Part shown: in pieces, positions 25,737 to 40,223 of the stretch
Position numbering within the stretch: the first letter of the stretch is position 1
How the letters are laid out: every line of letters starts with the position of its first letter
NCBI GenBank assembly: GCA_038106575.1
Contig: JAYOED010000008.1
Span: 1-58,491 of the forward strand
Source of the DNA: Burkholderiales bacterium
GTDB lineage: Bacteria; Pseudomonadota; Gammaproteobacteria; Burkholderiales; SG8-41
DNA length: 58,491 nucleotides
Direction: 5' to 3'
Program-made: the position numbers and the translations under genes
Notes under the pieces: generated by a model
The model's input: the letters and a program-made list of their open reading frames with translations, nothing else
Database searches by the model: none
Told to the model about the DNA's origin: nothing

Positions 25737-25928
25737 ATACCGAATTAATAACAACAAACCCGGAACAGTGCAGTCAAGGCGGGATGGAGTCTGCGGATCT
25801 GGTCAATTCACTGTTGACCGGTCCCGGACGTCGGCATACTCTGCCCAGATGTTTTTCTGCTGCAGCGGAAAATCTGACCGCGGCGTTCGACCGCGGCTTG
25901 TATGACAGGGATCGAGGGGCTCAGGAGC

Positions 25929-25978: not shown

Positions 25979-26428
25979 ATGATTTCACTCAATATCAATG
26001 GCCGCATGCATCAGGTCGATGTCGAACCCGATACGCCGCTGTTGTGGGCGATTCGCGAGCAGGTTGGTCTGACCGGCACCAAATACGGTTGCGGGGTCGC
26101 GCAGTGCGGATCCTGCACAGTGCACATCGATGGTGAAGCCGTGCGCTCTTGTGCGATGCCGGTTAGTGCCGCTGCCGGCAAGCGTATTACCACGATCGAA
26201 GGCCTTGCCAAGGGAAAGACGCTGCACAAGGTGCAGAAGGCCTGGGTCGATCACCAGGTACCGCAGTGCGGGTATTGCCAGTCGGGCATGGTCATGGCGG
26301 TTGCAGCATTGTTGGCGAAGAAACCGAAGCCGACCAATGCCGACATTGACACCCATGTCACCAACATCTGTCGCTGCGGCACCTTCCAGCAGGTGCGTGA
26401 AGCGATACACGCCGCAGCCAAGGCCTAG
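25979..26428 (+). CDS. [2Fe-2S] small subunit of a xanthine-oxidase-family hydroxylase (IorA/CoxS-like), copy 1
   Basis: 149 aa. [11 protein letters not shown] and CGYCQSG...CRCG cluster motifs. No signal peptide. Start at MISLNINGR. Confidence 0.9.
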
Positions 26429-26439
26429 GAGACCGCGAC

Positions 26440-28632
26440 ATGGAAACCATCAATATGAATCGCCGTTCGTTCTTGGTCACCAGCGCTGCCGCGGGGGGCG
26501 GGCTCGTCCTCGGCTTGCAGATCCCCTTCGGCATGACGACTGCGCAGGCTGCAGAAACCGTTCCCGAAATCAATGCCTGGGTCGTAATCAAGGCCGACGA
26601 TTCGGTCGTGATCCGGGTTGCGCGTTCTGAAATGGGTCAGGGCACCATCACCGGTCTGGCCCAGCTGGTCGTCGAAGAACTGGAATGCGACTGGTCAAAA
26701 GTCAGCACCGAATATCCGACGCCGGGCGAGAACCTGAAGCGCAATCGCGTCTGGCAGAGTTTCTCGACAGGAGGCAGCCGCGGCATCCGCACATCGCACG
26801 ATTATGTAAGGCGCGGTGGTGCTGCGGCACGCATGATGCTGCTGCAAGCAGCGGCCGACCAGTGGAAAGTGCCGGTCAACCAGTTGTCGGTCAGCAGGGG
26901 CGTGATTACACATGGTGCCAGCGGGCGCAAGGTGACTTACGGCAAGGTGGCTGCGGCCGCGGCGAAATTGACCCCGCCCGATGCGAAAGCCATCAAGCTC
27001 AAGGATCCGAAGAAATGGAAGGTCGCCGGAAAACCGATGAAGCGTTTTGGTACGGTCGACAAGGTCACCGGCCGCCAGGTCTATGGTGCGGACCTCAAGC
27101 TGCCGGGCATGGTCAATGCAACGATCATGGAATGCCCGGTATTTGGCGGCAAACTGAAAGCGTTTGATGCCGCCAAAGTCTCCGGCATGAAGGGCGTCAA
27201 GCAGGTCCTGCGTGTCGGTGATACCGCGGTCGCTGTTGTTGCCGATACCTGGTGGCATGCAAAAAAAGCACTGGATGGGCTGCCTGTCGATTGGGACTAT
27301 GGCGACAACGTCAAGGTATCGAGCGCCTCGATTGCCGATGTACTGAAGGCGGGTCTGGATGCACCGCAGGCTTTCGTCGGCAACAAGACGGGCGATGTCC
27401 AGTCCGCACTGAAAGGCGCGGCGAAGACCGTCGATGCGGTCTATTCATATCCGTACCAGAACCACGCACCGATGGAGCCGATGAACGCGACCGCGCGTTA
27501 CACACCGGACAAGTGCGAAGTCTGGGTGCCCACACAGGACGGCGAATCCTCGTTCGCCGCCGTGCTGGCGGCTTCCGGTCTGCCTGCGGACAAGTGCGAG
27601 GTTTACAAGATCGATCTCGGCGGCGGTTTCGGCCGGCGTGGTGCCTTCCAGGATTATGTGAAGCAGGCCGTGCTGATTGCCAAGCAGATGCCCGGGACAC
27701 CGGTCAAGTTGCTGTGGACGCGCGAGGAAGACATGCGCCAGGGCCGCTACCACCCCGTCATGCAATGCAAGCTCACCGGCAGTCTCGACTCCGCCAACAA
27801 CCTTACCGGGCTGCACATGCGCCTGTCAGGACAGTCGATTCTGGCTTCGGTGCGTCCGGCCGTCGTCGAGAAAGCCGGTGGCAAGGATCCGCTGACGTTC
27901 CAGGGTGTGGCGCAAAGCGGTGAGCATTCGATCGGCTACAGCTTTCCGAACCTGCTGATCGACCATGCCATGCGCAATCCGCATGTGCCGCCCGGTTTCT
28001 GGCGTGGCGTCAACATCAATCAGAACGCCATTTTCATCGAATGCTTCATGGATGAACTGGCGCATGCGGCAGGGCAGGATCCTCTGGAATTCCGTCGCAA
28101 GTTCATGGCGGATCATCCGCGCAATCTCGGCGTGCTGAATGCTGTTGCCAAGGGTATCGGCTGGACGAAACCCGCACCGAAGGGGCGTTATCGAGGCCTG
28201 GCGCAAATGAAAGCGTTCGACAGTTTTGTCGCGGCGGCCTGTGAGATTTCGGTGGACAGCACCGGCAACAAGGTCAAGATTCACCGCATCGTGGCAGCGA
28301 CCGACCCGGGTTATGCGGTCAATCCGGCGCAGATCGAGCGCCAGATCGCCGGATCATTTGTCTACGGCCTGTCTGCATTGTTTATGCAGGAATGCACGGT
28401 CAAGGACGGCCGCATCGAGCAGGACAACTTTCACACCTACAACTCGATGCGCATCGCGCAGATGCCCAGGGTCGAAAGCATCATCATGCCGACCGGCGGG
28501 AAGGTCTGGGGCGGCATCGGCGAGCCTACCATCTGCGTTGCTGCGCCGGCAGTGCTCAACGCCTACTTCAAGGCGACCGGCAAGCGCATCCGCACGGTCC
28601 CGTTGAAGAATCACGGTATTGAACTCGTTTGA
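26440..28632 (+). CDS. Molybdopterin-binding large subunit (IorB/CoxL-like), Tat-exported, copy 1
   Basis: 730 aa. Twin-arginine signal MNRRSFLVTSAAAGGGL. EINAWVVIKADDSVVIRVARSEMGQGT is typical of the IorB-type family. Confidence 0.9.
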   Translation: METINMNRRSFLVTSAAAGGGLVLGLQIPFGMTTAQAAETVPEINAWVVIKADDSVVIRVARSEMGQGTITGLAQLVVEELECDWSKVSTEYPTPGENLKRNRVWQSFSTGGSRGIRTSHDYVRRGGAAARMMLLQAAADQWKVPVNQLSVSRGVITHGASGRKVTYGKVAAAAAKLTPPDAKAIKLKDPKKWKVAGKPMKRFGTVDKVTGRQVYGADLKLPGMVNATIMECPVFGGKLKAFDAAKVSGMKGVKQVLRVGDTAVAVVADTWWHAKKALDGLPVDWDYGDNVKVSSASIADVLKAGLDAPQAFVGNKTGDVQSALKGAAKTVDAVYSYPYQNHAPMEPMNATARYTPDKCEVWVPTQDGESSFAAVLAASGLPADKCEVYKIDLGGGFGRRGAFQDYVKQAVLIAKQMPGTPVKLLWTREEDMRQGRYHPVMQCKLTGSLDSANNLTGLHMRLSGQSILASVRPAVVEKAGGKDPLTFQGVAQSGEHSIGYSFPNLLIDHAMRNPHVPPGFWRGVNINQNAIFIECFMDELAHAAGQDPLEFRRKFMADHPRNLGVLNAVAKGIGWTKPAPKGRYRGLAQMKAFDSFVAAACEISVDSTGNKVKIHRIVAATDPGYAVNPAQIERQIAGSFVYGLSALFMQECTVKDGRIEQDNFHTYNSMRIAQMPRVESIIMPTGGKVWGGIGEPTICVAAPAVLNAYFKATGKRIRTVPLKNHGIELV

Positions 28633-29080
28633 CCGCCGCCGCGACTTCCTGAAAACCGCTGGCCTTGCGGCCGGCGGCGCGGCGCTGGTGTTGCCGGCAC
28701 TGGCCTCACCGGAAGATATGCGCGCCGCATTGACTAAGATCACCGGCGGGGCTGACGTGCGCCGTGGACGCGTCAAGTTGCAATTGCCGCCGTTGGTGGA
28801 AAACGGCAACTCGGTCGAGTTTTCGGTGACCGTCGACAGTCCGATGACGGAAACCGACTATGTGAAGGCGATCCATGTATTCACGGAAAAAAATCCCCAG
28901 CCGTACGTGATCAACGCCTATCTGGGGCCGCGCGCCGGCCGTGCACGGATCACCAGCAGAACGCGGCTGGCTGACACTCAAACCGTGCACGCGGTTGCCG
29001 AACTGAGCAACGGCACATTCTGGACGGATTCTGTCAGCGTGGTGGTCACACTGTCAGCGTGCATCGGGGATTTGATCTGA
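28619..29080 (+). CDS. SoxY-like sulfur-carrier protein with a non-canonical C-terminal arm, copy 1
   Basis: Tat signal RRRDFLKTAGL. SoxY core LPPLVENGNSVEFSV...VHAVAELSNGTFW. Ends VVVTLSACIGDLI instead of GGCGG. The TTG start overlaps the Mo-subunit stop by 14 nt. Confidence 0.8.
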   Translation: MNSFDRRRDFLKTAGLAAGGAALVLPALASPEDMRAALTKITGGADVRRGRVKLQLPPLVENGNSVEFSVTVDSPMTETDYVKAIHVFTEKNPQPYVINAYLGPRAGRARITSRTRLADTQTVHAVAELSNGTFWTDSVSVVVTLSACIGDLI

Positions 29081-29400: not shown

Positions 29401-29599
29401 AAAATATCATTTAAAACAGACACTTGTAAATTATCTTCTACGGCAATGTGGTTGCGCTTGGGTTACTCGCCGCCGCCGCCAGTTTTTTTCTTGACCGGTG
29501 CAGACCGCGGGAATAATCTGCCCGGCGCGCGTTGTTCATCATGCGCAGACTGCGGCGCCAGACCGCGGCGAATACCAGCGGCGTCGAGGGGAATCAGGC

Positions 29600-30212: not shown

Positions 30213-32414
30213 ATGACGACCAAGCAATCAATGAATATTGAAAATGAATCCCGCCGCCGCTTCATCGTCGGTTCGGCTGCCGCAGGCGGCGGACTGGCGC
30301 TCGGTATTGGCTTGCCTTTTGGTTCGGTCACGGCGGCGGAAGGCCCCGGCAGCACCGAGGTCAATGCCTGGGTCGTCGTCAAACCCGACGACACTTGCGT
30401 GATCCGCATCGCCCGCGCCGAAATGGGACAGGGCACTCATACCGGACTGGCCCAGCTGGTGGCCGAAGAACTGGAGTGCGATTGGAAAAAAGTTGCGATC
30501 GAACCGATCAGCCCGGGCAGCAATCTGGCGCGCAAGCGGGTTTGGGGTCCGATGTCGACCGGCGGCAGCCGCGGCATCCGCAGTTCCCAGGATTATGTCC
30601 GTCAGGGTGGTGCGGCGGCACGCATCATGCTGTTGCAGGCGGCAGCGGATCAGTGGAACGTCACTGCGGGTGAACTGACGGTGTCCAATGGGGTCATCAC
30701 TCATGCTGCCTCGGGACGCAAGACTACCTACGGCAAGGTGGCTGACGCGGCTGCCAGGCTGCCGGTGCCGAAATTCAAATCTATCAAGCTGAAGAATCCC
30801 CGTGACTGGAAGATTGCCGGTCAGCCGCTGAAGCGGCTCGACACCGCGGACAAGGTCAATGGGGGCAAGAAATACTCGATCGACCTCAAACTTCCCGGCA
30901 TGATGTTCGCCGCGATCAAAGCCTGCCCTGTTTTCGGCGGCAAGGTGGCGGGTTACGAAGAAGGGGCGATTGCGAGCCGCCGCGGCGTGAAGGGCGTGGT
31001 GAAGGTGGGCGACTCGGCGATCGCAGTCGTTGCCGATACCTGGTGGCGCGCCAAGACCGCTCTGGATGCGCTGCCAATCACCTGGGACGAGGGCGTCAAT
31101 GCCAAGGAGACGAGCGCGACCATCGCGGTACGGTTGAAAGAAGGCCTTGATGCTGATGGCGAGGCTTATGCGGATACCGATATCGGAGACGCTTCGGGCA
31201 CCATTTCCGGCGCTGTGAAAAAGGTTGAAGCTGTCTACAGTGTGCCGTTCGTTTCACATTCCTGCATGGAGCCGATGAACTGCACGGTCAAGGTCAGCGC
31301 CAACTCCGCGGAAGTCTGGATGCCGAGCCAGAACGCCGAGGCTTCGCTGGCCGTGCTGTCCTCGGTTTCCGGCGTTCCTCTGAACCAGTGCGAGGCTTAC
31401 AACCATGGACTTGGCGGCGGATTCGGCCGTCGTGGCGGCACGCAGGACTTCGTAAGACAGGCTACAGCAATCGCCAGACAATTTCCCGACACCCCGGTGA
31501 AGCTGATCTGGAGCCGGGAAGAAGACCAGTCACACGATTTCTACCGGCCGATCGCACAGTGCAGGCTGTCGGCAGGACTGGATGAAGACGGCAACCTGCA
31601 GGGACTGCATATCCGAGTGTCCGGCCAGTCGATCAACGCCTACCTGGCTCCGCACAACATCAAGGAAGGCAAGGATCGCCGGCAATTGCAGGGGTTGTGG
31701 AAGCAGCCGCATGACGCACAGTTCGGCTACACGGTGCCGCACCTGCGCATCGAATACGTGATGCGCAACACCCATGTTCCTGTCGGACCCTGGCGTGGCG
31801 TGAATACCAACCAGAACGGCATATTCAGCGAGTGTTTCATGGATGAGGTCGCCAAGGCTGCGGGCAAGGACCCGCTGGAATTCCGCCGCGAGCTGATGAA
31901 AGATCATCCTAAGCATCTCGGCGTGCTCAATGCCGCTGCCGAGAAGGGCGACTGGGGCAAACCCCTGCCTGCCGGAAGGTTTCGCGGCATTGCCCAGTTC
32001 ATGGGCTACGCCAGTTACACTGCGGCGGTGGCAGAAGTGTCGGTCAGCGCCAAAGGCGAGATCAAGGTGCATCGAATGGTGCTGGCGACCAATTGCGGTC
32101 ACGCAGTGAATCCCGCTACGATTGCGGCACAGATCGAAGGCTCGGTAGCCTACGGGTTTGATTCGCTGCTTACTGAAATCAGCATTAAGGATGGCCGGGT
32201 GCAGGAACAGAATTTCCATACCTACCAGATCGCTCGACTGCGGCATTTGCCCAAGGTCGAATCGGTCATTGTGCCGACCTATGATTTCTGGGGAGGAGTG
32301 GGTGAGCCGACGATCTGCGTGACGGTTCCCGCAGTGCTGAACGCGGTTTTCGCGGCCACTGGCAAGCCGGTGCGTACGTTGCCGCTGAAGCACGAAGGGT
32401 TGACGCTGGTCTGA
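30213..32414 (+). CDS. Molybdopterin-binding large subunit (IorB/CoxL-like), Tat-exported, copy 2
   Basis: 733 aa. SRRRFIVGSAAAGGGL signal. Collinear with copy 1 over its whole length. Confidence 0.9.
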   Translation: MTTKQSMNIENESRRRFIVGSAAAGGGLALGIGLPFGSVTAAEGPGSTEVNAWVVVKPDDTCVIRIARAEMGQGTHTGLAQLVAEELECDWKKVAIEPISPGSNLARKRVWGPMSTGGSRGIRSSQDYVRQGGAAARIMLLQAAADQWNVTAGELTVSNGVITHAASGRKTTYGKVADAAARLPVPKFKSIKLKNPRDWKIAGQPLKRLDTADKVNGGKKYSIDLKLPGMMFAAIKACPVFGGKVAGYEEGAIASRRGVKGVVKVGDSAIAVVADTWWRAKTALDALPITWDEGVNAKETSATIAVRLKEGLDADGEAYADTDIGDASGTISGAVKKVEAVYSVPFVSHSCMEPMNCTVKVSANSAEVWMPSQNAEASLAVLSSVSGVPLNQCEAYNHGLGGGFGRRGGTQDFVRQATAIARQFPDTPVKLIWSREEDQSHDFYRPIAQCRLSAGLDEDGNLQGLHIRVSGQSINAYLAPHNIKEGKDRRQLQGLWKQPHDAQFGYTVPHLRIEYVMRNTHVPVGPWRGVNTNQNGIFSECFMDEVAKAAGKDPLEFRRELMKDHPKHLGVLNAAAEKGDWGKPLPAGRFRGIAQFMGYASYTAAVAEVSVSAKGEIKVHRMVLATNCGHAVNPATIAAQIEGSVAYGFDSLLTEISIKDGRVQEQNFHTYQIARLRHLPKVESVIVPTYDFWGGVGEPTICVTVPAVLNAVFAATGKPVRTLPLKHEGLTLV

Positions 32415-32869
32415 TGGAGATCCGCAGCTGCGTGCGCCTGTGCGCGTGGTGGATTGCGCTAGGCGCCGTGGCTGGCTGTGCAATTTCTGAAGTATCGCCC
32501 GTTGAAGTAACGGTCAGGGTCGGCGCCATTCCGGTGGCGCTATCCAAGGCGCCTGCCGACCCGGCGCGCGGCCTGAAAATCATGTCCGGGCGCGACGCAA
32601 ACTGCCTGCTGTGTCATGCAGTGCCGGAATCAGGGCTGCGCTTCATGGGCAATCTCGCGCCGCCGCTGTCGGGTATTGGCGGGCGACTGTCCGCCGCACA
32701 ACTGCGGTTGCGCGTGGTTGATATGTCGCGGCTGAATCCCGAAACCATCATGCCGCCGTATTATCGGGTCACCGGACTGCGCAACGTGGCTGACGCCTAT
32801 CGCGGAAGACCTGTTCTGACGGCGCAGGAAATCGAGGACGTGGTGGCCTATCTGCAGACGCTGAAATGA
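32414..32869 (+). CDS. soxX: Monohaem c-type cytochrome SoxX-like, with a lipobox signal
   Basis: Single CLLCH. GNLAPPLSGIG...IMPPYY matches the SoxX pattern. N-terminus ALGAVAGC is a lipobox. Sits in soxX-Y-Z-A order. Confidence 0.75.
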   Translation: MEIRSCVRLCAWWIALGAVAGCAISEVSPVEVTVRVGAIPVALSKAPADPARGLKIMSGRDANCLLCHAVPESGLRFMGNLAPPLSGIGGRLSAAQLRLRVVDMSRLNPETIMPPYYRVTGLRNVADAYRGRPVLTAQEIEDVVAYLQTLK

Positions 32870-33318
32870 TTTCCCGCAGAACATTCCTGCAGTGGATGGC
32901 CGGACTGTGTGCGCTGGACGCCGGTTCGGCGCGCGCGCAGGCCGTTGCATCAAACGATCTGCGGCCGCTAATCGCTGAGCTTACCAGTGGTGCCGCGGTA
33001 ACCGTCGGACGTATCCGTGTGGAAACGCCGCGTCTGGCCGACAACGGGCATTCGGTGCCGATGAAGCTCGTGGTGGACAGCCCGATGACGGCGACGGACT
33101 ATGTGAGCAGCATCACGCTGCTGTCACCGCGCAACCCGCGGCCGCTGATGGCGAAATTCATGCTTGGGCCGCGCGCCGGCCGCGCAGAAATCCTGACCCG
33201 CGTGCGCCTCAACGGTACCCAGGCCGTGCTGGCAATCGCGCATTTGTCCGACGGCACGTTCTGGAGCGGCAGCGCCGAGGTCGAGGTGACCGAGTCGGCC
33301 TGTCTGGATGCCGTCTAA
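32866..33318 (+). CDS. SoxY-like sulfur-carrier protein with a non-canonical C-terminal arm, copy 2
   Basis: Tat signal SRRTFLQWMAGL. Core TPRLADNGHSVPMKL...LAIAHLSDGTFW. Ends VEVTESACLDAV. ATGA overlap with soxX. Confidence 0.8.
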   Translation: MISRRTFLQWMAGLCALDAGSARAQAVASNDLRPLIAELTSGAAVTVGRIRVETPRLADNGHSVPMKLVVDSPMTATDYVSSITLLSPRNPRPLMAKFMLGPRAGRAEILTRVRLNGTQAVLAIAHLSDGTFWSGSAEVEVTESACLDAV

Positions 33319-33638
33319 TGGTGGCGCGTGTGCAGGTTCCGGCGAATGCAAGGCGCGGCGACGTCATTGCCGTGCGCATCGCAATCCAGCATCCGATGGA
33401 AACCGGTTTTCGCTATGACTTGCGCGGCAAACTGTTGCCGAAAAATGTGATCAACAGCCTGGTGTGCCGTTACAACGGCACTGAAATTTTCCGTGCGGAA
33501 ATGGGCTCGGGCATTGCCGCCAATCCCTCCCTGCAGTTTTACACGGTGGCTGCGGACAGCGGCGAATTGCATTTCGAGTGGGTGGACGACCGGGGCGTGC
33601 GCGGCGAGGAACGGGCGCGACTGGTCGTCAGCGGTTGA
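33318..33638 (+). CDS. soxZ: SoxZ-family protein, copy 2
   Basis: IAVRIAIQHPMETGFRYDLRGKLLPKNVI...ANPSLQFY...FEWVDDRGV. TAATG overlap with the upstream gene. Confidence 0.85.
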   Translation: MVARVQVPANARRGDVIAVRIAIQHPMETGFRYDLRGKLLPKNVINSLVCRYNGTEIFRAEMGSGIAANPSLQFYTVAADSGELHFEWVDDRGVRGEERARLVVSG

Positions 33639-33640
33639 AC

Positions 33641-34423
33641 ATGTCCTGCGTCCGCAAGCGCTGGTGTTGGGGCCTGCTGCTGGCGGGCTGCATGGTCGCG
33701 GCCATGGGCGCCGATAACGGACCGCGTCAGCGTTCGGGCGTCGACTACGCCAGCGAATATATTCGTACCATGCAGGCTGATGATTTTTCCAATCCCGGTA
33801 TGCTGTGGGTCACGCGCGGAGAGAAACTGTGGAATGCCAGTGATGGACGCACCGGAAAATCTTGCGCCGGCTGCCATCAGGATGCGCGATCAAGCATGAA
33901 GGGCGTGGCGACCCGCTATCCATTGCAGGACAGAGATTCGGGAAAACTGCTTAATCTCGAAGCGCGCATCAACCAGTGCCGTCAGGTTCGCCAGGGCGCG
34001 GAGCCGTATCGCTACGAGTCCGACGAACTTCTGGGGTTGACCGCTTACGTAGCGCATCAGTCGCGGGGGCTACCGCTGGCGGTCAGGATTGATGACAGCA
34101 ACCGCGAGCATTACCTCCGCGGTAGGGCCACCTATAACCGCAGGCAGGGCCAGATGAATCTCGCCTGTGTCAATTGCCATGAGCAGAATGCCGGACGCCG
34201 GCTGCTGGCGGAAACGATCAGTGAGGGTCATGGCAACGCATACCCAATCTACCGATTAGAGTGGCAGTCTACTGGATCGTTACACCGGCGCTTGCGTTCC
34301 TGCTATTTTGGCATTCGCGCGCAGTTGCCCGCGTACGGCTCCGACGAACTTCTGGAGCTGGAGCTGTTTCTGGCGCAGCGGGCACGCGGGCTTGCGGTCG
34401 AGACACCGGGCGTCCGCCGCTAG
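33641..34423 (+). CDS. soxA: Dihaem c-type cytochrome SoxA-like
   Basis: CAGCH and CVNCH, plus the conserved Cys-ligand context LHRRLRSCYFGIRA. N-terminus GLLLAGC may be a lipobox. Confidence 0.8.
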   Translation: MSCVRKRWCWGLLLAGCMVAAMGADNGPRQRSGVDYASEYIRTMQADDFSNPGMLWVTRGEKLWNASDGRTGKSCAGCHQDARSSMKGVATRYPLQDRDSGKLLNLEARINQCRQVRQGAEPYRYESDELLGLTAYVAHQSRGLPLAVRIDDSNREHYLRGRATYNRRQGQMNLACVNCHEQNAGRRLLAETISEGHGNAYPIYRLEWQSTGSLHRRLRSCYFGIRAQLPAYGSDELLELELFLAQRARGLAVETPGVRR

Positions 34424-34447
34424 TTCGGGCGGCTTTATTGGTCAGAG

Positions 34448-35425
34448 TTAGATCTGGGTGCCCAGTTCGATGACCCGGTTGTTCGGCAGGTTGAAATAAT
34501 CGACGAGCCTGCTGGCATTGCGCACCATCGCCGCGAATATGCGTTCCCGCAACAGCGCCATGTCTCCGCCGCTGAACGGAATCAGTATCTCACGGCTGAG
34601 GAAGAACGAGGTTTCCATGAATTCGAACACCAGTCCGTGCGGGCAGTAAAGATCCAGCGCCTGAGGCACATCGGGCTGGTTCTCGAATCTGAAGCGCGCC
34701 CGAATTTACTAGCAGCCATTGCCCAGCGACTTCACGGATATGCGCTCGCTGCACGAAACCCAGGGCACACCCTCGATGGTTACAGTCAGGAAGATCACAC
34801 GTTCTTACAGAAACTTATTGCGCGATAGGTTGTGCAGTAGGGTATGGGGCAAGGTATCTGGGGCCTCCATGAATACCGCTGTACCGGGGACGCAAGGCAG
34901 CGGAAATTCAGACACTGAACCAAGCGAGGTTTGCAGCGGAATGGCGGACGAATGCATGCGGTCGATGACAATCTGCCGTCCCCGCGCCTAGGTCAGCATG
35001 ATAACGAACATCGTGGTAACCAGCACCAGCGGCGGCCAGCCGCCCTGTGCCACCTTGAGTAGACTTGATGAGAAAAACGCAATATCGATCAGGATGAAAA
35101 ACCCAGCAGCGCCATGCGAAAATTTAGGTTGGGCGGGTTAATCCACCAGAGATGCGCGCCAAACCAGATGGCCAGGTTGCTACATGCCAGTAGGCTCTCA
35201 AACTGGGCGGACCTACCTGAATTGATTACACGTCGGGTCGAGCCGATCCATGCGGCAATCAGCAACGTAATTAAGGCAATGGCGACGACATGTGTAGGGA
35301 GAAAGCGTGAAAAGACTCTATGAATAACGAGCCTGCCATTCCTGCAGATGGCGATCCGTTAGCCTCCGTTCGGAAATACCAGGGACATACAGCCTGCCGG
35401 GACGTGCCTGATGAAACTAACGCAA
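34448..35425 (-). pseudogene. kup: Decayed, 5'-truncated KUP/HAK-family potassium transporter gene
   Basis: My minus-strand translation gives ...AAGFFILIDIAFFSSSLLKVAQGGWPPLVLVTTMFVIMLT*ARGRQ...[43 protein letters not shown]...LGNGC**IRARFRFENQPDVPQALDLY...METSFFLSREILIP...LPNNRVIELGTQI. In-frame stops lie at 34988-90, 34805-07, 34709-11 and 34706-08. The frame changes near 35110-35140. Homology starts only around 35425. Confidence 0.85.
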
Positions 35426-36472
35426 ACTGGCATTGATTTTTTCCAGTGTCGCCGAGCCGGGGCACAGGTCGCCGGTACCGAGCTGGTTAAGCGGGGTGTC
35501 GACGGTCTTGATGTAGTGATGCAGGTCGGCGGCGTCCGGCGACAGATAGAGTAGGCCGGTCACAATTTCGCCTGCTGCGGCGCGCTCCTGCACGTAGTTC
35601 ATGGCCTTGATACGGTCGGTGGGATCGTAGTCCGGCGACAGCTTGCGTAACCTAAGCATCGAGCCATCGTGCTGGGCGACGCTGATGACCTCGCCAGGCT
35701 CGTAATCAGCGGTAATTTCTTCCCTGGATTCGATGAAGTCAAGCCGGTTGACCGCGGCGTTATGCAGGCGCACGTATTCGTAGGACTTGGTCGAACCTTC
35801 GTGATTGTTGAAGGCGACGCAGGGTGAAATGATGTCGATGAACGAGGGTCCCGGATGCTGGATCGCGGCCTTGATCAGCGGTACCAGCTGCTTTTTGTCT
35901 CCGGAGAAGGCACGCGCGACAAAAGTAGCGCGCAGCAGCAGGGCCATGCCGACCAAGTCTACGGCCTCGTCGGGATTGAAAACGCCGCGCTTGGATTTCG
36001 AACCCTTGGTTGCCGTAGCAGAGAACTGACCCTTTGTCAGTCCGTAAACGCCATTGTTTTCGACGATGTAGACCATGTTGACGCCGCGGCGAATGCAGTG
36101 CGCAAACTGGCCAAGACCAATCGAGGCCGAGTCGCCGTCTCCGGAAACGCCCAGATAGAGCAGGTCGCGATTGGCGAGATTGGCGCCGGTCAGCACCGAG
36201 GGCATGCGGCCATGGACGCTGTTGAAACCGTGCGAATTGCCGAGGAAGTAATCCGGGGTCTTTGACGAGCAGCCGATGCCGGACAGCTTGGCGACGCGGT
36301 GGGGCTGGATATCCAGTTCCCAGCAAGCCTGGATGATGGAGGCCGAGATCGAATCGTGGCCGCATCCGGCGCACAGCGTGGAAATCTTGCCCTCGTAATC
36401 GCGGCGGGTATAGCCCGCGGCATTGGGGGCAAGTGACGGATGGTGCAGTTTGGGTTTAGCAAGATAGGTCAT
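35417..36472 (-). CDS. korB: 2-oxoacid:ferredoxin oxidoreductase beta subunit (TPP-binding)
   Basis: 351 aa. CAGCGHDSI and GVSGDGDSASIG motifs. Confidence 0.88.
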   Translation of the reverse strand: MTYLAKPKLHHPSLAPNAAGYTRRDYEGKISTLCAGCGHDSISASIIQACWELDIQPHRVAKLSGIGCSSKTPDYFLGNSHGFNSVHGRMPSVLTGANLANRDLLYLGVSGDGDSASIGLGQFAHCIRRGVNMVYIVENNGVYGLTKGQFSATATKGSKSKRGVFNPDEAVDLVGMALLLRATFVARAFSGDKKQLVPLIKAAIQHPGPSFIDIISPCVAFNNHEGSTKSYEYVRLHNAAVNRLDFIESREEITADYEPGEVISVAQHDGSMLRLRKLSPDYDPTDRIKAMNYVQERAAAGEIVTGLLYLSPDAADLHHYIKTVDTPLNQLGTGDLCPGSATLEKINASLR

Positions 36473-36484
36473 GATGACTTCAGG

Positions 36485-38320
36485 TCAGGACGCTTTTTTT
36501 AGCGGCACCACGCGGTGCGCGCCGGCATGCTGGGAAATGTGATCGACGATGAAACGAGCGGTGATCGGCGTGCCGTCGTAGTGCAGCACTGAAATGAGGC
36601 GCGAAGGATTGATCTTGCCGTCGTTGACCAGCAGGGTTTTCAGCTGGGCGTCACGGTTCTGCTCGATGACGAATACCCAGGGATGTGAACGCACGAAATC
36701 GTTGAGTTCGTCGCCAAATGGAAAACCGCGAACGCGAAGCGCGTTGACGTGTATGCCTTTTTCACCAAGCAGGTCGAGGGCCTCTTCCATTGCCGGGCTG
36801 GTCGAGCCGTAGAATATCGCGCCGAACCGTGCCGGTTTGTCCGCCGGATACAGCAGGGGTTTCGGCACTAGTGACTTCGCGGTTTCGAACTTGCGCATCA
36901 GCCGCTGCATATTGTCGACGTAGTCCGGGCCAGCTTCAGAATATTGCGCGTAGCGGTTCTTGGTGGTTCCGCGGGTGAAATAGCCGCCCTTGGTGGGGTG
37001 AGTACCGGGATAAGTGCGGAACGGGATGCCGTCGCCGTCGACATCGAGGTAGCGGCCGAAATCGGCGCCGGCCTCGAGCCGTTCGTAGGTCATCACCTTG
37101 CCGCGGTCGTATTTCTTCGTATCGTCCCAGGCAAAGGGTCGGCAGAGCCGCGTGTTCATGCCGATATCAAGGTCGGTCATCACGAATACCGGCGTCTGCA
37201 GCCGTTCGGCCAGGTCAAACGCCTGCGCGGTCAGTTCGAAGCACTCGGTGGGGTCTTCGGGAAACAGCAGCACGTGCTTGGTATCGCCGTGCGAGGCATA
37301 GGCGCAGGCCAGGATATCGGACTGCTGGGTGCGTGTCGGCATGCCGGTTGAAGGTCCGCCGCGCTGCACGTCGATCAGTACCACCGGGATTTCGGCGAAA
37401 TAGGCGAGACCGATGAATTCGCTCATCAGGGAGATGCCTGGACCGGAGGTCGCGGTAAACGACCGGGCGCCGTTCCAGCCGGCACCGATAGCGATGCCGA
37501 TTGAGGCCAGTTCGTCTTCGCCCTGGATGATCGCGTACTTGTTCTTGCCTGAATCGGCGTCGATACGGTGTTTTTTGCAATGGGCCATGAAAGCTTCGGC
37601 CAGCGAGGACGACGGCGTGATCGGATACCAGGCGCAGACCGAGGCGCCGCCGTAAACTGCACCCAGGGCCGCCGCGCTGTTGCCGTCGGTAAAGATGCGG
37701 TCGCCGACGTTGTCTGATTTCTGAATGCGGATGCCTAGCGGGCAGGGAAGATTATCCAGCGCGTAATCACGTCCCAGATGCAGAGCCTTGAGATTGGACT
37801 GCAGTAGCGCTTCCTTGCCCTTGTACTGTTCGGAAAACAGTTTTTCGATGACTTTCGGGTCGATTTCCAGCAGTGCTGAAAGCGCGCCGACATAGATAAT
37901 GTTCTTGAACAGCTGTCGCTGGCGCGGATCGCTGTAGGTGGTATTGCAGATTTCGGTCAGCGGCATCCCGATCGGGGTCACGTCTTCGCGGAATTTCGAT
38001 TTCGGCAGCGGCTTGGTGTTGTCGTAGAACAGATAGCCACCGGACTCGATTTCCTTGAGGTCGTTGTCCCAGGTCTGCGGGTTCATTGCCACCATCAGAT
38101 CGACGCCGCCGCGGCGGCCAAGATATCCTTTTTCGGTGACCCGTACTTCGTACCAAGTCGGGAGACCCTGGATATTCGAAGGGAAGATGTTGCGTGGGCT
38201 GACCGGGACACCCATGCGCAGGATGGAGCGCGCGAACAGTTCGTTGGCTGAGGCGGATCCAGAGCCGTTGACGTTGGCAAACTTGACGACAAAATCGTTA
38301 ACAGCGGTAATCGAAGTCAT
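36485..38320 (-). CDS. korA: 2-oxoacid:ferredoxin oxidoreductase alpha subunit (fused gamma/alpha)
   Basis: 611 aa. N-terminus VKFANVNGSGSASANELFARSILRMGVPVSPRNIFPSNIQGLPTWYEVRV. Sits upstream of korB. Confidence 0.88.
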   Translation of the reverse strand: MTSITAVNDFVVKFANVNGSGSASANELFARSILRMGVPVSPRNIFPSNIQGLPTWYEVRVTEKGYLGRRGGVDLMVAMNPQTWDNDLKEIESGGYLFYDNTKPLPKSKFREDVTPIGMPLTEICNTTYSDPRQRQLFKNIIYVGALSALLEIDPKVIEKLFSEQYKGKEALLQSNLKALHLGRDYALDNLPCPLGIRIQKSDNVGDRIFTDGNSAAALGAVYGGASVCAWYPITPSSSLAEAFMAHCKKHRIDADSGKNKYAIIQGEDELASIGIAIGAGWNGARSFTATSGPGISLMSEFIGLAYFAEIPVVLIDVQRGGPSTGMPTRTQQSDILACAYASHGDTKHVLLFPEDPTECFELTAQAFDLAERLQTPVFVMTDLDIGMNTRLCRPFAWDDTKKYDRGKVMTYERLEAGADFGRYLDVDGDGIPFRTYPGTHPTKGGYFTRGTTKNRYAQYSEAGPDYVDNMQRLMRKFETAKSLVPKPLLYPADKPARFGAIFYGSTSPAMEEALDLLGEKGIHVNALRVRGFPFGDELNDFVRSHPWVFVIEQNRDAQLKTLLVNDGKINPSRLISVLHYDGTPITARFIVDHISQHAGAHRVVPLKKAS

Positions 38321-38336
38321 TGCGAAGGCTGTGTGA

Positions 38337-40223
38337 TCAGGCGGCTTTGCGTTGGGGATTGCGGCACCCGGGTCCGGCGTGCGTCATCTTGAGCAGGTAT
38401 TTCTGCATGTCCCAGGCACCGGTCGGACAGCGTTCCGCACAGAGCCCGCAGTGCAGACAGACATCCTCGTCCTTGGCCATGATGCGGCCGGTCATGCGCA
38501 GCTTGTCTGACACGTAGAGACTCTGGTCCGCATGCAGCGACGGCGCGGTCAGGCGTTCGCGCAGCTCGGCTTCCTCGCCATCCGGTGTGAACGTGATGCA
38601 ATCCATCGGGCAGATGTCTACGCAGGCGTCGCATTCGATGCACAGCCGTGGGGTAAATACCGTCTGCACGTCGCAATTGAGACAACGCTGGGTTTCGCCG
38701 TAGGCAGTTTTGGCGTCGAAGCCGAGTTCGACCTCGACCTTGATGTTCTTCAGCGTCAGCTTCTGGTCCTGCCAGGGCACTTTGTTGCGCAGCGCCGCTG
38801 AAATGTCGTTGTCGTAACTCCATTCGTGGATGCCCATCTTCTGCGACATCACGACGACTGCGGGAAGCGGTCGGTCGGTCAGCGATTCGCCATTGAGCAT
38901 TTTGTCGATGGATACCGCGGCTTCGTGACCATGCGCCACGGCCCAGATGATGTTCTTCGGGCCGAAGGCGGCATCGCCACCGAAAAACACCTTCGGGTTG
39001 GTCGATTGCATGGTCACCTTGTCGACCACCGGCATGTTCCATTTATCGAAATCGAGACCGGCATCGCGCTCGATCCAGGGGAATGCGTTTTCCTGGCCGA
39101 TGGCGACCAGCACGTCGTCGCACTCGACCAGCTGGTCGGGTTCTCCGGTGGGCACCAGGCTGCGGCGGCCCTTGGCGTCGTATTCGGCCTTGACCTTTTC
39201 AAATACCACGCCGGTCAGCTTGCCGTCCTCGATTTTGCAGGACTTAGGCACCATGAAATTGATGATGGGGATGTCTTCGTGTATGGCATCTTCCTTCTCC
39301 CACGGGCTCGCCTTCATCTCATCATAGCCCGAGCGCACGATGACCTTGACGTCCTCGCCGCCCAGACGTTTTGCCGAGCGGCAACAGTCCATCGCGGTAT
39401 TTCCGCCGCCAAGCACGATCACGCGCTTGCCCACCTTATCGATGTGACCGAATGAAACGCTGGCCAGCCAGTCGATGCCGATATGGATGTTCTTTGCGCC
39501 TTCCTGGCGGCCAGGCACGTCGAGATCGCGACCGCGCGGTGCGCCGGTGCCGATGAAAATTGCGTCATAGCCTTCGGCCAGGACTTTTTTCAGGCTGTCG
39601 ATGCGCGTGCCGGATTTGACCGTGATATTGCCGATGCCGGTGATGTAGCCGATCTCCTCGTCGATGACGGCTTCCGGCAGCCGGAAGCGCGGCACCTGGG
39701 TGCGCATGAAACCGCCGGCCTTGGGGTCGGATTCATAAATGGTGATGTCATAACCCAGCGGAGCCAGATCGCGTGCAACCGTCAGTGAGGCAGGGCCGGC
39801 GCCGATGCAGGCGATGCGTTTGCCGTTTTTCTGTTTTAGCGCCTTAGGCATGCGCTGCGCGACGTCATCCTTGTTGTCAGCGGCGACGCGTTTGAGTCGG
39901 CAGATCGCTACCGGCTCCGGTTTCGAGCCTTCTGCATGCGTGGTCGGTTTGCGCAGTTCGACGTTGCCTTCCTCGACGCGGCCGCGGCGGCATGCCGGTT
40001 CACAAGGGCGGTCACAGGTGCGGCCGAGGATTCCGGGAAAGACATTCGAATTCCAGTTGACCATGTAGGCATCGCTGAAGCGGCCCGCGGCGATCAAGCG
40101 GATGTATTCGGGGACGGGTGTGTGAGCCGGGCAGGCCCACTGACAATCGACAACTTTATGGAAGTAATCGGGGTGCGCGATATCAGTCGGTTTCAACAAA
40201 TACTCCGTTGCAGGTGCCGCCAC
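38337..40223 (-). CDS. GltD/NfnB-like NAD(P)H flavin oxidoreductase fused to a C-terminal 2x[4Fe-4S] ferredoxin domain
   Basis: 628 aa. N-terminal Cys-rich region (CDRPCEPAC). IACIGAGPASLTVARDL and VLGGGNTAMDC dinucleotide folds. C-terminal CIECDACVDICP and CLHCGLCAERCP. GTG start. Confidence 0.8.
   Translation of the reverse strand: MAAPATEYLLKPTDIAHPDYFHKVVDCQWACPAHTPVPEYIRLIAAGRFSDAYMVNWNSNVFPGILGRTCDRPCEPACRRGRVEEGNVELRKPTTHAEGSKPEPVAICRLKRVAADNKDDVAQRMPKALKQKNGKRIACIGAGPASLTVARDLAPLGYDITIYESDPKAGGFMRTQVPRFRLPEAVIDEEIGYITGIGNITVKSGTRIDSLKKVLAEGYDAIFIGTGAPRGRDLDVPGRQEGAKNIHIGIDWLASVSFGHIDKVGKRVIVLGGGNTAMDCCRSAKRLGGEDVKVIVRSGYDEMKASPWEKEDAIHEDIPIINFMVPKSCKIEDGKLTGVVFEKVKAEYDAKGRRSLVPTGEPDQLVECDDVLVAIGQENAFPWIERDAGLDFDKWNMPVVDKVTMQSTNPKVFFGGDAAFGPKNIIWAVAHGHEAAVSIDKMLNGESLTDRPLPAVVVMSQKMGIHEWSYDNDISAALRNKVPWQDQKLTLKNIKVEVELGFDAKTAYGETQRCLNCDVQTVFTPRLCIECDACVDICPMDCITFTPDGEEAELRERLTAPSLHADQSLYVSDKLRMTGRIMAKDEDVCLHCGLCAERCPTGAWDMQKYLLKMTHAGPGCRNPQRKAA

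Follow-up and report, generated by a model that had tools for sequence, protein, structure and literature searches.

Predicted SoxYZ-type carriers with a short non-GGCGG arm are linked to xanthine-oxidase-family molybdenum enzymes in a Burkholderiales contig and in other genomes

In the present study, a 58,491-nt stretch of DNA of a Burkholderiales bacterium of the lineage SG8-41 (contig JAYOED010000008.1 of assembly GCA_038106575.1; hereafter the window, to which all coordinates refer) was analysed. Positions 32866-33638 are predicted to encode a functional SoxYZ-type carrier, exported by the twin-arginine translocation (Tat) system, with the reactive cysteine placed on a short free arm of the form T-E-S-A-C-L-D-A-x and not on GGCGG. 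The first-pass annotation of this DNA had placed a SoxY-like carrier, the second in the window, between SoxX and SoxA; this was confirmed, and the span covers both soxY2 and soxZ2. As the gene neighbourhoods show, the main feature of the context is a near-obligate partnership of such carriers with a molybdenum hydroxylase. Each carrier pair in the window is preceded by a Tat-exported molybdenum (Mo) enzyme belonging to the xanthine-oxidase family, composed of a 2Fe-2S subunit and a Mo subunit. In the favoured reading, to which we assign a probability of roughly 0.45, SoxXA would load a sulfur species on the arm and the cognate Mo enzyme would process the adduct.

The C-terminal tail of SoxY2 reads VEVTESACLDAV, and the translated open reading frame (ORF) ends with SAEVEVTESACLDAV. 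The free arm consists of E143-S-A-C146-L-D-A-V150 and contains no GGCGG. In the alignment with Paracoccus SoxY, Cys146 falls on the carrier cysteine (VEVTESAC versus VKVTIGGC). In the AlphaFold2 model, which has a predicted local distance difference test score of 81.8, the last strand includes residues 132-142 and ends at T142, and the eight-residue tail is of low confidence. The best Foldseek match of this model is Paracoccus SoxY (2OX5_Y, template modelling score 0.86, 34% identity). The RR motif of the Tat signal is invariant in the SoxY alignments. The motifs that had been described as common to the two carriers of the window were found in both copies (VDSPMT[AE]TDYV, LGPRAGRA, LS[DN]GTFW and V-x-VT-x-SAC), and the copies are clearly diverged, as had also been proposed, with 50% identity over 117 residues (E 4e-41); the two SoxZ copies are 48% identical.

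The conservation of the SoxY2 tail motif, estimated from homologous sequences, is far beyond chance. All of the best 120 among more than 2600 database relatives (64-98% identical to SoxY2) end with VxVT[EQ]S[AT]C[LM]D followed by two residues. In seven orthologous loci, the ratio of nonsynonymous to synonymous polymorphism (pN/pS) for the last 12 codons of soxY2 is 0.03 (pS 0.31), compared to 0.28 for the mature body, and the gene-wide ratio of nonsynonymous to synonymous substitution rates (dN/dS) is 0.07-0.34. Within the tail, the sole residue at which these loci differ is the terminal one, Val in the window. The tail of copy 1 has a pN/pS of 0.10; the gene of this copy has a dN/dS of 0.09-0.13, and its orthologues retain LSACIG[DN]L[VI]. 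The suggestion that the non-canonical cysteine context is functional rather than a product of decay is upheld by the invariance of the tail in orthologues and by its low pN/pS. Relaxed selection and frameshifts, named beforehand as findings that would speak against it, were looked for and neither was seen, soxY2 being intact in all seven loci. The departure from GGCGG, as well as the terminal Val in place of the Gly, Thr or Ser present in 110 of the 120 homologues, might point to a decaying paralogue with a functionless, degenerate tail. This explanation is refuted by the tail conservation in the 120 homologues together with the selection figures; with ORFs intact in all orthologues and a family of that size in the databases, its probability is negligible.

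The carrier of copy 1 is a member of TIGR04487, the 'SoxY-related AACIE arm protein' family (SoxY_para_1), with 192.2 bits against a cut-off of 172, and this name is already used by NCBI for its orthologues. SoxY2 scores 144.3 bits with the same model, which is below the cut-off, yet no other model scores better. It also remains below the cut-offs of the true-SoxY model TIGR04488, defined by GGCGG (91.1 versus 125), and of the fused SoxY-SoxZ family (61.9 bits versus 140); the soxY2 and soxZ2 genes are separate and no pyrroloquinoline quinone (PQQ) enzyme is encoded nearby. The S-A-C-L-D arm of SoxY2 agrees with the small-Ala-Cys-hydrophobic-acidic pattern of TIGR04487. The Ala-Cys pair is invariant in the alignments of both clades, as are the SPM[TS] insertion and the SDG-x-FW motif, neither of which is present in canonical SoxY. 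These comparisons place the SoxY2 clade, with its fixed E-S-A-C-L-D arm, as a large sister clade of the TIGR04487 family, labelled simply SoxY in the source databases. The arm type is not new as a kind, and SoxY2 represents a sister variant, scoring below the threshold, of a family already known. The earlier view of the two copies as paralogues with a shared arm type is correct as regards the shared motifs; the arm type itself had already been curated as TIGR04487. A literature search found nothing coupling 'AACIE' with SoxY.

Similar carriers were sought in a collection with a single genome for each species, and 589 matching stretches were confirmed. The best 80 loci, 79 of them new, were examined. 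Among the 68 loci informative for upstream genes (at least 3.5 kb of upstream DNA), 64 contain 2Fe-2S and Mo genes immediately upstream of the carrier. SoxX and SoxA are encoded in 72 of the 79 carrier loci of other genomes, and the X-Y-Z-A order recurs in the same number. The first-pass annotation had described a classical soxX-Y-Z-A context; the order is present, but the most consistent neighbour, the xanthine-oxidase-family Mo enzyme, was not mentioned there. In 46 of the 79 loci, a gene related to the flavoprotein of flavocytochrome-c-type sulfide dehydrogenase (FCSD) is located between the Mo gene and soxX; it was assigned by tblastn with the protein of locus L012 and confirmed by Pfam in L012, L020 and L021. 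The cassette was found in Burkholderiales, Bradyrhizobium and other Hyphomicrobiales, Gammaproteobacteria, Rokubacteria and Methylomirabilota. Neither SoxB nor SoxCD was detected in the 58-kb window or among the Pfam-annotated genes of loci L015-L023. The genes flanking the cassette vary between lineages, and no regulator or transporter travels with it in the annotated loci. Downstream of carrier-free Mo genes or of units with the order F-M-Y-Z (F, 2Fe-2S subunit; M, Mo subunit; Y and Z, carrier proteins), no conserved extra partner, such as a cytochrome, hydrolase or regulator, was detected; the same survey revealed only scattered TctC-type binding proteins, which are abundant in Burkholderiales anyway.

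A conserved ORF of 96 aa without Pfam hits was observed between the Mo subunit and FCSD flavoprotein genes of L020 (6975-7265) and L021 (7011-7301). It may encode the small cytochrome subunit of the flavocytochrome.

Judged from its sequence, SoxXA is canonical in every feature that could be checked. SoxA aligns over its full length with 1H31_A of Rhodovulum (E 3e-47) and with 2C1D_A, and retains both haem motifs, CAGCH and CVNCH, and both Cys ligands (inqCrq and lrsCyf). SoxX aligns with 1H31_B (E 1e-21), including the CxxCH motif. Loading of the variant arm by SoxXA, as had been suggested from the gene order, is plausible on these grounds. At the SoxX N-terminus (32414-32490), the predicted signal peptide ends with the lipobox-like LGAVAGC; from residue 26 onwards, the mature protein can be aligned with soluble SoxX. 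In locus L018 (10001-12107) the gene order is F-M-Y-Z-X-A, with SoxX (X) after SoxZ, instead of F-M-X-Y-Z-A, which indicates that soxX can stand either before or after the carrier genes.

Mo subunit 1 is 57% identical to Mo subunit 2 and 69% identical to the Bradyrhizobium enzyme of L012. Among solved structures, Mo subunit 2 is closest to 8GY3_C, the large subunit of a membrane aldehyde dehydrogenase (E 2e-63). The GGGFGRR loop is retained in the Mo subunit, and its GVGEP aligns with GLGEP of 8GY3 and GVGEL of PaoC, where the Glu, by residue count Glu692, is the catalytic base. The features of IorAB-type enzymes, namely MoCoBD domains, a subunit with two 2Fe-2S clusters and the catalytic Glu, were all recognised, and the cassette contains no gene for a flavin adenine dinucleotide (FAD) subunit.

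The 80 loci with the closest Mo enzymes comprise 38 with a carrier pair (30 of these also with SoxXA), 31 without a carrier in the available DNA and 11 that are cut off. In a neighbour-joining tree of the Mo enzymes, constructed without bootstrap, the whole type-1 clade and the greater part of the type-2 clade have linked carriers, as has a deep outgroup clade (41% identity) where the arrangement is F-M-Y-Z only, and the carrier-free enzymes belong mostly to one sub-clade. This distribution suggests that the linkage of carrier and Mo enzyme is ancestral, with one main loss. The arm type tracks the Mo clade: ES-A-C-L-D occurs with type-2 and outgroup enzymes, and L-[AS]-A-C-x-[EG] with type-1 enzymes. 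SoxXA does not track the arm, since SoxA of L018, a locus with a type-1 arm, is 77% identical to SoxA of the window.

The outgroup loci L005-L009 (and L163) encode a Mo enzyme of the 41% identical clade followed by SoxY'Z' with the tail VNESACLDGG, without SoxXA. The module of L005 is located between a divergent tripartite ATP-independent periplasmic (TRAP) transporter and a helix-turn-helix/DUF3612 regulator. The metagenome-assembled genomes that contain these loci have, in addition, a copy of the closer Mo enzyme without a linked carrier (L034, L081).

In the favoured reading, SoxXA would oxidatively join a reduced sulfur species to the arm cysteine, and in many relatives the FCSD may load the arm as well. 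The species would probably be sulfide or polysulfide rather than thiosulfate. The cognate Mo enzyme would then take the arm into its active site and oxidise or hydroxylate the bound adduct, the electrons leaving through its 2Fe-2S clusters to c-type cytochromes; it would fill the role that SoxCD (and SoxB) have in classical Sox. A single SoxXA would serve both carriers in the source genome. It is most likely that the arm bears a sulfane or thiosulfonate adduct, because SoxXA and the flavocytochrome make S-S bonds and the reactive cysteine has been kept. The Mo enzyme is likely to be the processor of this adduct, since it is the only other enzyme of the cassette and co-diverges with the arm. 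That the substrate is not thiosulfate is argued from data on cultured relatives: a soxY1 mutant of B. diazoefficiens cannot oxidise thiosulfate although soxY2 is present, and soxY2 is not needed (PMC5748708), and the second sox cluster of Starkeya shows hardly any expression on thiosulfate, methanol or glucose (PMC3797975).

Several points weigh against this reading, including the dispensability of soxY2 (PMC5748708) and the poor expression of the Starkeya cluster (PMC3797975), which have to be listed on this side too. Carrier pairs occur without SoxXA in 7 of the 79 loci and in module 1 of the window; the Mo enzyme alone accompanies the pair in, for example, module 1, L005-L009 and Limnohabitans L039. 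In 31 of the 69 informative loci with a Mo enzyme of 57-74% identity, no linked carrier is seen in the available DNA. A screen for residues of a possible arm-docking surface, in which the carrier-linked enzymes span three divergent clades, found no Mo-subunit residue present in at least 90% of carrier-linked and at most 15% of carrier-free enzymes; at thresholds of 75% and 30%, six weak candidates appeared. To our knowledge, the xanthine-oxidase family is known for hydroxylation at carbon centres and for CO oxidation, not for sulfur chemistry, and the chemistry proposed here is one that we infer. The broader proposition that an enzyme of this family acts on a tethered sulfur adduct as a SoxCD/SoxB replacement, or else that the carrier re-sulfurates Mo=S in the periplasm, is likewise tentative, at somewhat less than even odds.

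The second of these activities, the main rival of the favoured reading, would make the carrier a factor of cofactor maintenance. Xanthine-oxidase-family enzymes need a terminal Mo=S ligand and lose it easily; a carrier persulfide, formed by SoxXA or the flavocytochrome, would install or restore it, and the substrate oxidised by the Mo enzyme would be a free small molecule, e.g., an aldehyde. The dependence is one-sided, carriers occurring with the Mo enzyme in 64 of 68 loci and about 45% of the close Mo enzymes having no linked carrier, and this suits an accessory factor. Consistent with such a role are the lack of an active-site signature separating carrier-linked from carrier-free enzymes, the lack of an XdhC/PaoD-type sulfuration chaperone gene in the cassette or the window, and the precedent of SoxYZ-like proteins beside non-sulfur periplasmic dehydrogenases in the ped cluster (PMC12997753). 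It agrees less well with translational coupling, which suggests stoichiometric expression with the enzyme, or with the retention of its own carrier pair by each Mo paralogue, and high-flux sulfur oxidases such as SoxXA and the FCSD flavoprotein seem excessive for a trace delivery of sulfur. We know of no description of periplasmic re-sulfuration of the molybdenum cofactor, and on balance maintenance is unlikely.

Somewhat less probable still is a carrier for carbon or organosulfur compounds, in which the arm thiol would bind an organic substrate, such as an aldehyde as thiohemiacetal or methanethiol joined as a disulfide by SoxXA, and the Mo hydroxylase would oxidise the carbon of the tethered molecule. 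The known chemistry of the Mo family is at carbon, among solved structures the Mo subunit comes closest to an aldehyde dehydrogenase that shares its GGGFGRR and G-x-GEP motifs, and the L005-type modules, which lack SoxXA, adjoin a TRAP carboxylate transporter. On the other hand, SoxXA (about 90% of cassettes) and the FCSD flavoprotein (about 58%) are sulfur-specific as far as is known, Mo aldehyde oxidoreductases use free aldehydes without any carrier, and no conserved transporter, regulator or downstream catabolic gene stands beside the cassette. It might also be supposed that this is an ordinary, redundant SoxYZ, a spare carrier of the thiosulfate pathway with SoxB/SoxCD encoded elsewhere and the Mo enzyme unrelated to it. 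SoxX, SoxZ2 and SoxA do score above the equivalog cut-offs curated for genuine Sox proteins, and the view is confined to a 58-kb window of the genome. The failure of SoxY2 with the true-SoxY model (91 versus 125) and its lack of GGCGG, the conservation of the Mo linkage over Alpha-, Beta- and Gammaproteobacteria, Rokubacteria and Methylomirabilota, and the thiosulfate-negative phenotype of the B. diazoefficiens soxY1 mutant despite soxY2 (PMC5748708) make this quite improbable.

The genes described make up a self-contained periplasmic cassette, a compact block on the + strand at about 25.8-34.4 kb, arranged as two tandem modules (Table 1). Module 1 has the order [2Fe-2S + Mo subunit]-Y1-Z1, and module 2 the order [2Fe-2S + Mo subunit]-SoxX-Y2-Z2-SoxA. 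The ATG at 25979 was chosen as the start of 2Fe-2S subunit 1 by homology to the genes of 148-149 aa in L018 and L022. The soxZ1 ATG overlaps the soxY1 stop, and the genes of relatives at this place are also 106 aa long. Overlapping junctions were found in module 2 as well (ATGA at 32866-32869 between soxX and soxY2, TAATG at 33316-33320 between soxY2 and soxZ2); this arrangement fits translational coupling. The region was also checked for foreign origin, and the GC content of 0.57-0.62 across 20-40 kb shows no anomaly.

Table 1. Predicted genes and regulatory elements of the two tandem modules in the 58,491-nt window.
Feature	Position	Strand	Evidence or remark
Promoter-like element, module 1 (TTGACC, 17 nt, CATACT)	25814..25846	+	boxes conserved in orthologous leaders
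GC-rich leader hairpin, module 1 (ACCGCGGC-N4-GACCGCGGC)	25877..25897	+	pattern count, RNAalifold
2Fe-2S small subunit, Mo enzyme 1, 149 aa	25979..26428	+	PF00111, PF01799
Mo-binding large subunit 1, xanthine-oxidase family (IorB/aldehyde dehydrogenase (ALDH)-like), Tat signal	26440..28632	+	PF02738, PF20256
SoxY-like carrier 1, tail VVVTLSACIGDLI	28619..29080	+	TIGR04487
SoxZ-like partner 1, 106 aa	29080..29400	+	PF08770, 86.9 bits
Promoter-like element, module 2 (TTGACC, 17 nt, AATAAT)	29491..29523	+	boxes conserved in orthologous leaders
Conserved leader hairpin, module 2	29549..29569	+	pattern count, RNAalifold
2Fe-2S small subunit, Mo enzyme 2, 183 aa	29648..30199	+	PF00111, PF01799; genes of relatives 183 aa
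Mo-binding large subunit 2, xanthine-oxidase family, Tat signal	30213..32414	+	PF02738, PF20256
SoxX monohaem cytochrome c	32414..32869	+	TIGR04485, 75.9 bits versus cut-off 61
SoxY-like carrier 2 (SoxY2), 150 aa, Tat signal SRRTFL	32866..33318	+	PF13501, 99.2 bits versus 28.4
SoxZ-like partner 2 (SoxZ2), 106 aa	33318..33638	+	TIGR04490, 83.5 versus 76; PF08770, 94.2 bits
SoxA dihaem cytochrome c, 260 aa from ATG 33641	33641..34423	+	TIGR04484, 227 versus 110
Terminator-like hairpin with T-rich tail, operon end	34416..34433	+	consensus scan; weak evidence alone

Each module is preceded by a homologous leader of about 240 bp. The promoter-like pattern TTGACCGGT-N17-[CA]ATA[CA]T (33 nt) has exactly two occurrences in the window, one in front of each module, and its -35 and -10 boxes are conserved in orthologous leaders; the hairpin pattern AC[CT]GCGGC-N4-GACCGCGGC has two matches in the window versus 0 expected. 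RNAalifold applied to nine leaders kept seven pairs, with GC to AU changes in two sequences; pairing in the orthologous leaders is maintained by some compensatory changes. The leaders were compared with Rfam in case they belonged to a riboswitch class already described, for example the Moco RNA motif, and nothing matched even at E <=1.

Close relatives share the syntenic flanks of the block, with amidase, yqiA, RNase II-like, tonB, aroE and mtgA genes upstream and 2-oxoacid:ferredoxin oxidoreductase downstream. The same site holds only the type-2 module in L015 and L017 and only the type-1 module in L018, and both modules stand in tandem in L022 and L023, and also in L032 and L059. Where the two modules are in tandem, a single SoxXA accompanies both carriers. 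A recent tandem duplication was rejected, each module being closer to the modules of other genomes than to its neighbour. By these similarities, the modules are old paralogues from two old clades that were brought together.

Immediately beyond the cassette, positions 34448-34669 on the - strand encode no more than the C-terminal 73 residues of a potassium transporter of the Kup type (PF22776). It seems that this gene is truncated or deleted in the source genome, since L015, L017, L018 and L022 contain a complete Kup gene of 627 aa at the same position. Positions 35417-40223 (- strand), directly downstream, encode the alpha and beta subunits of a 2-oxoacid:ferredoxin oxidoreductase and a large Fer4/pyridine-nucleotide-disulfide oxidoreductase. 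This block is syntenic in all close relatives and appears unrelated to the cassette.

The carriers routinely receive the annotation 'sulfur oxidation protein SoxY', so that metagenomic surveys may count them as thiosulfate oxidation, or may instead discard them for lacking the GGC motif (PMC11237559). They belong to a distinct cassette found at more than 580 places in a one-genome-per-species collection, with a molybdenum hydroxylase as the constant partner. If the Mo enzyme does act on a tethered adduct, the cassette would represent a part of the sulfur cycle that has gone unrecognised, and a kind of reaction new to the xanthine-oxidase family. It would also be a second widespread periplasmic route of sulfur oxidation, for non-thiosulfate substrates, in freshwater and soil Burkholderiales, Bradyrhizobium, Rokubacteria and Methylomirabilota. 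Periplasmic re-sulfuration of Mo=S, if true, would likewise be chemistry not known for this family. Cultured organisms with the cassette that are suitable for study include Bradyrhizobium, Starkeya and Limnohabitans sp. Jir72.

Among known systems, the TIGR04487 family resembles both copies in the Tat signal, the SoxY fold, the Ala-Cys followed by a hydrophobic residue, the adjoining SoxZ-like gene, and the SPM[TS] insertion and SDG-x-FW motif common to both. The acidic residue after the Cys-hydrophobic pair is found in copy 2 and in most homologues, whereas copy 1 has Gly (SACIGD). The SoxY2 clade differs by its fixed E-S-A-C-L-D-A arm, against L-A-A-C-[ILV]-E in the family, and by association with another Mo clade. 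The Mo-enzyme and SoxXA context ascribed here to TIGR04487-type carriers was derived in the present analysis, and the window matches it. The closest counterparts in cultured bacteria are soxX2Y2Z2A2F2 of Starkeya novella with the xanthine-oxidase-family Mo enzyme Snov_1975/76, which has the same gene content and lacks SoxB/SoxCD (PMC3797975), and the second sox cluster of Bradyrhizobium diazoefficiens (soxY2); the Bradyrhizobium locus L012 has the order F-M-FCSD-X-Y-Z-A and the arm LAACTEETN. These second clusters are of type 1 (AACIE) and include the flavocytochrome, whereas the window has no flavoprotein and its two modules share SoxXA.

The canonical SoxYZ of Paracoccus pantotrophus (2OX5/2OXG) has the same fold, a cysteine at the end of the last strand, a SoxZ partner, the soxX-Y-Z-A order and Tat export; in contrast to its GGCGG, the arm of SoxY2 has side chains (Glu, Ser, Leu, Asp), and the cassette is without soxB/soxCD. 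The SoxCD sulfane dehydrogenase is a possible functional analogue of the window enzyme, as a periplasmic Mo enzyme tied to SoxYZ that oxidises arm-bound sulfur. SoxC, however, belongs to the sulfite-oxidase family and works with the haem subunit SoxD, and the window enzyme belongs to the unrelated xanthine-oxidase family with two 2Fe-2S clusters. IorAB-type Mo hydroxylases (8GY3, isoquinoline 1-oxidoreductase, PaoABC) share with it the two-subunit core without an FAD subunit, the Tat signal of the large subunit and the GGGFGRR and G-x-GEP motifs. Of these, 8GY3_C is a distant relative, though the only full-length match, and the window enzyme differs in having no cytochrome c subunit of the ALDH type and in having a SoxYZ-like carrier directly downstream. 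The fused SoxY-SoxZ proteins of PQQ enzymes likewise derive from SoxYZ and have been recruited, outside classical sulfur oxidation, to a periplasmic dehydrogenase, but in the window SoxY and SoxZ are encoded by separate genes, with a Mo enzyme as partner.

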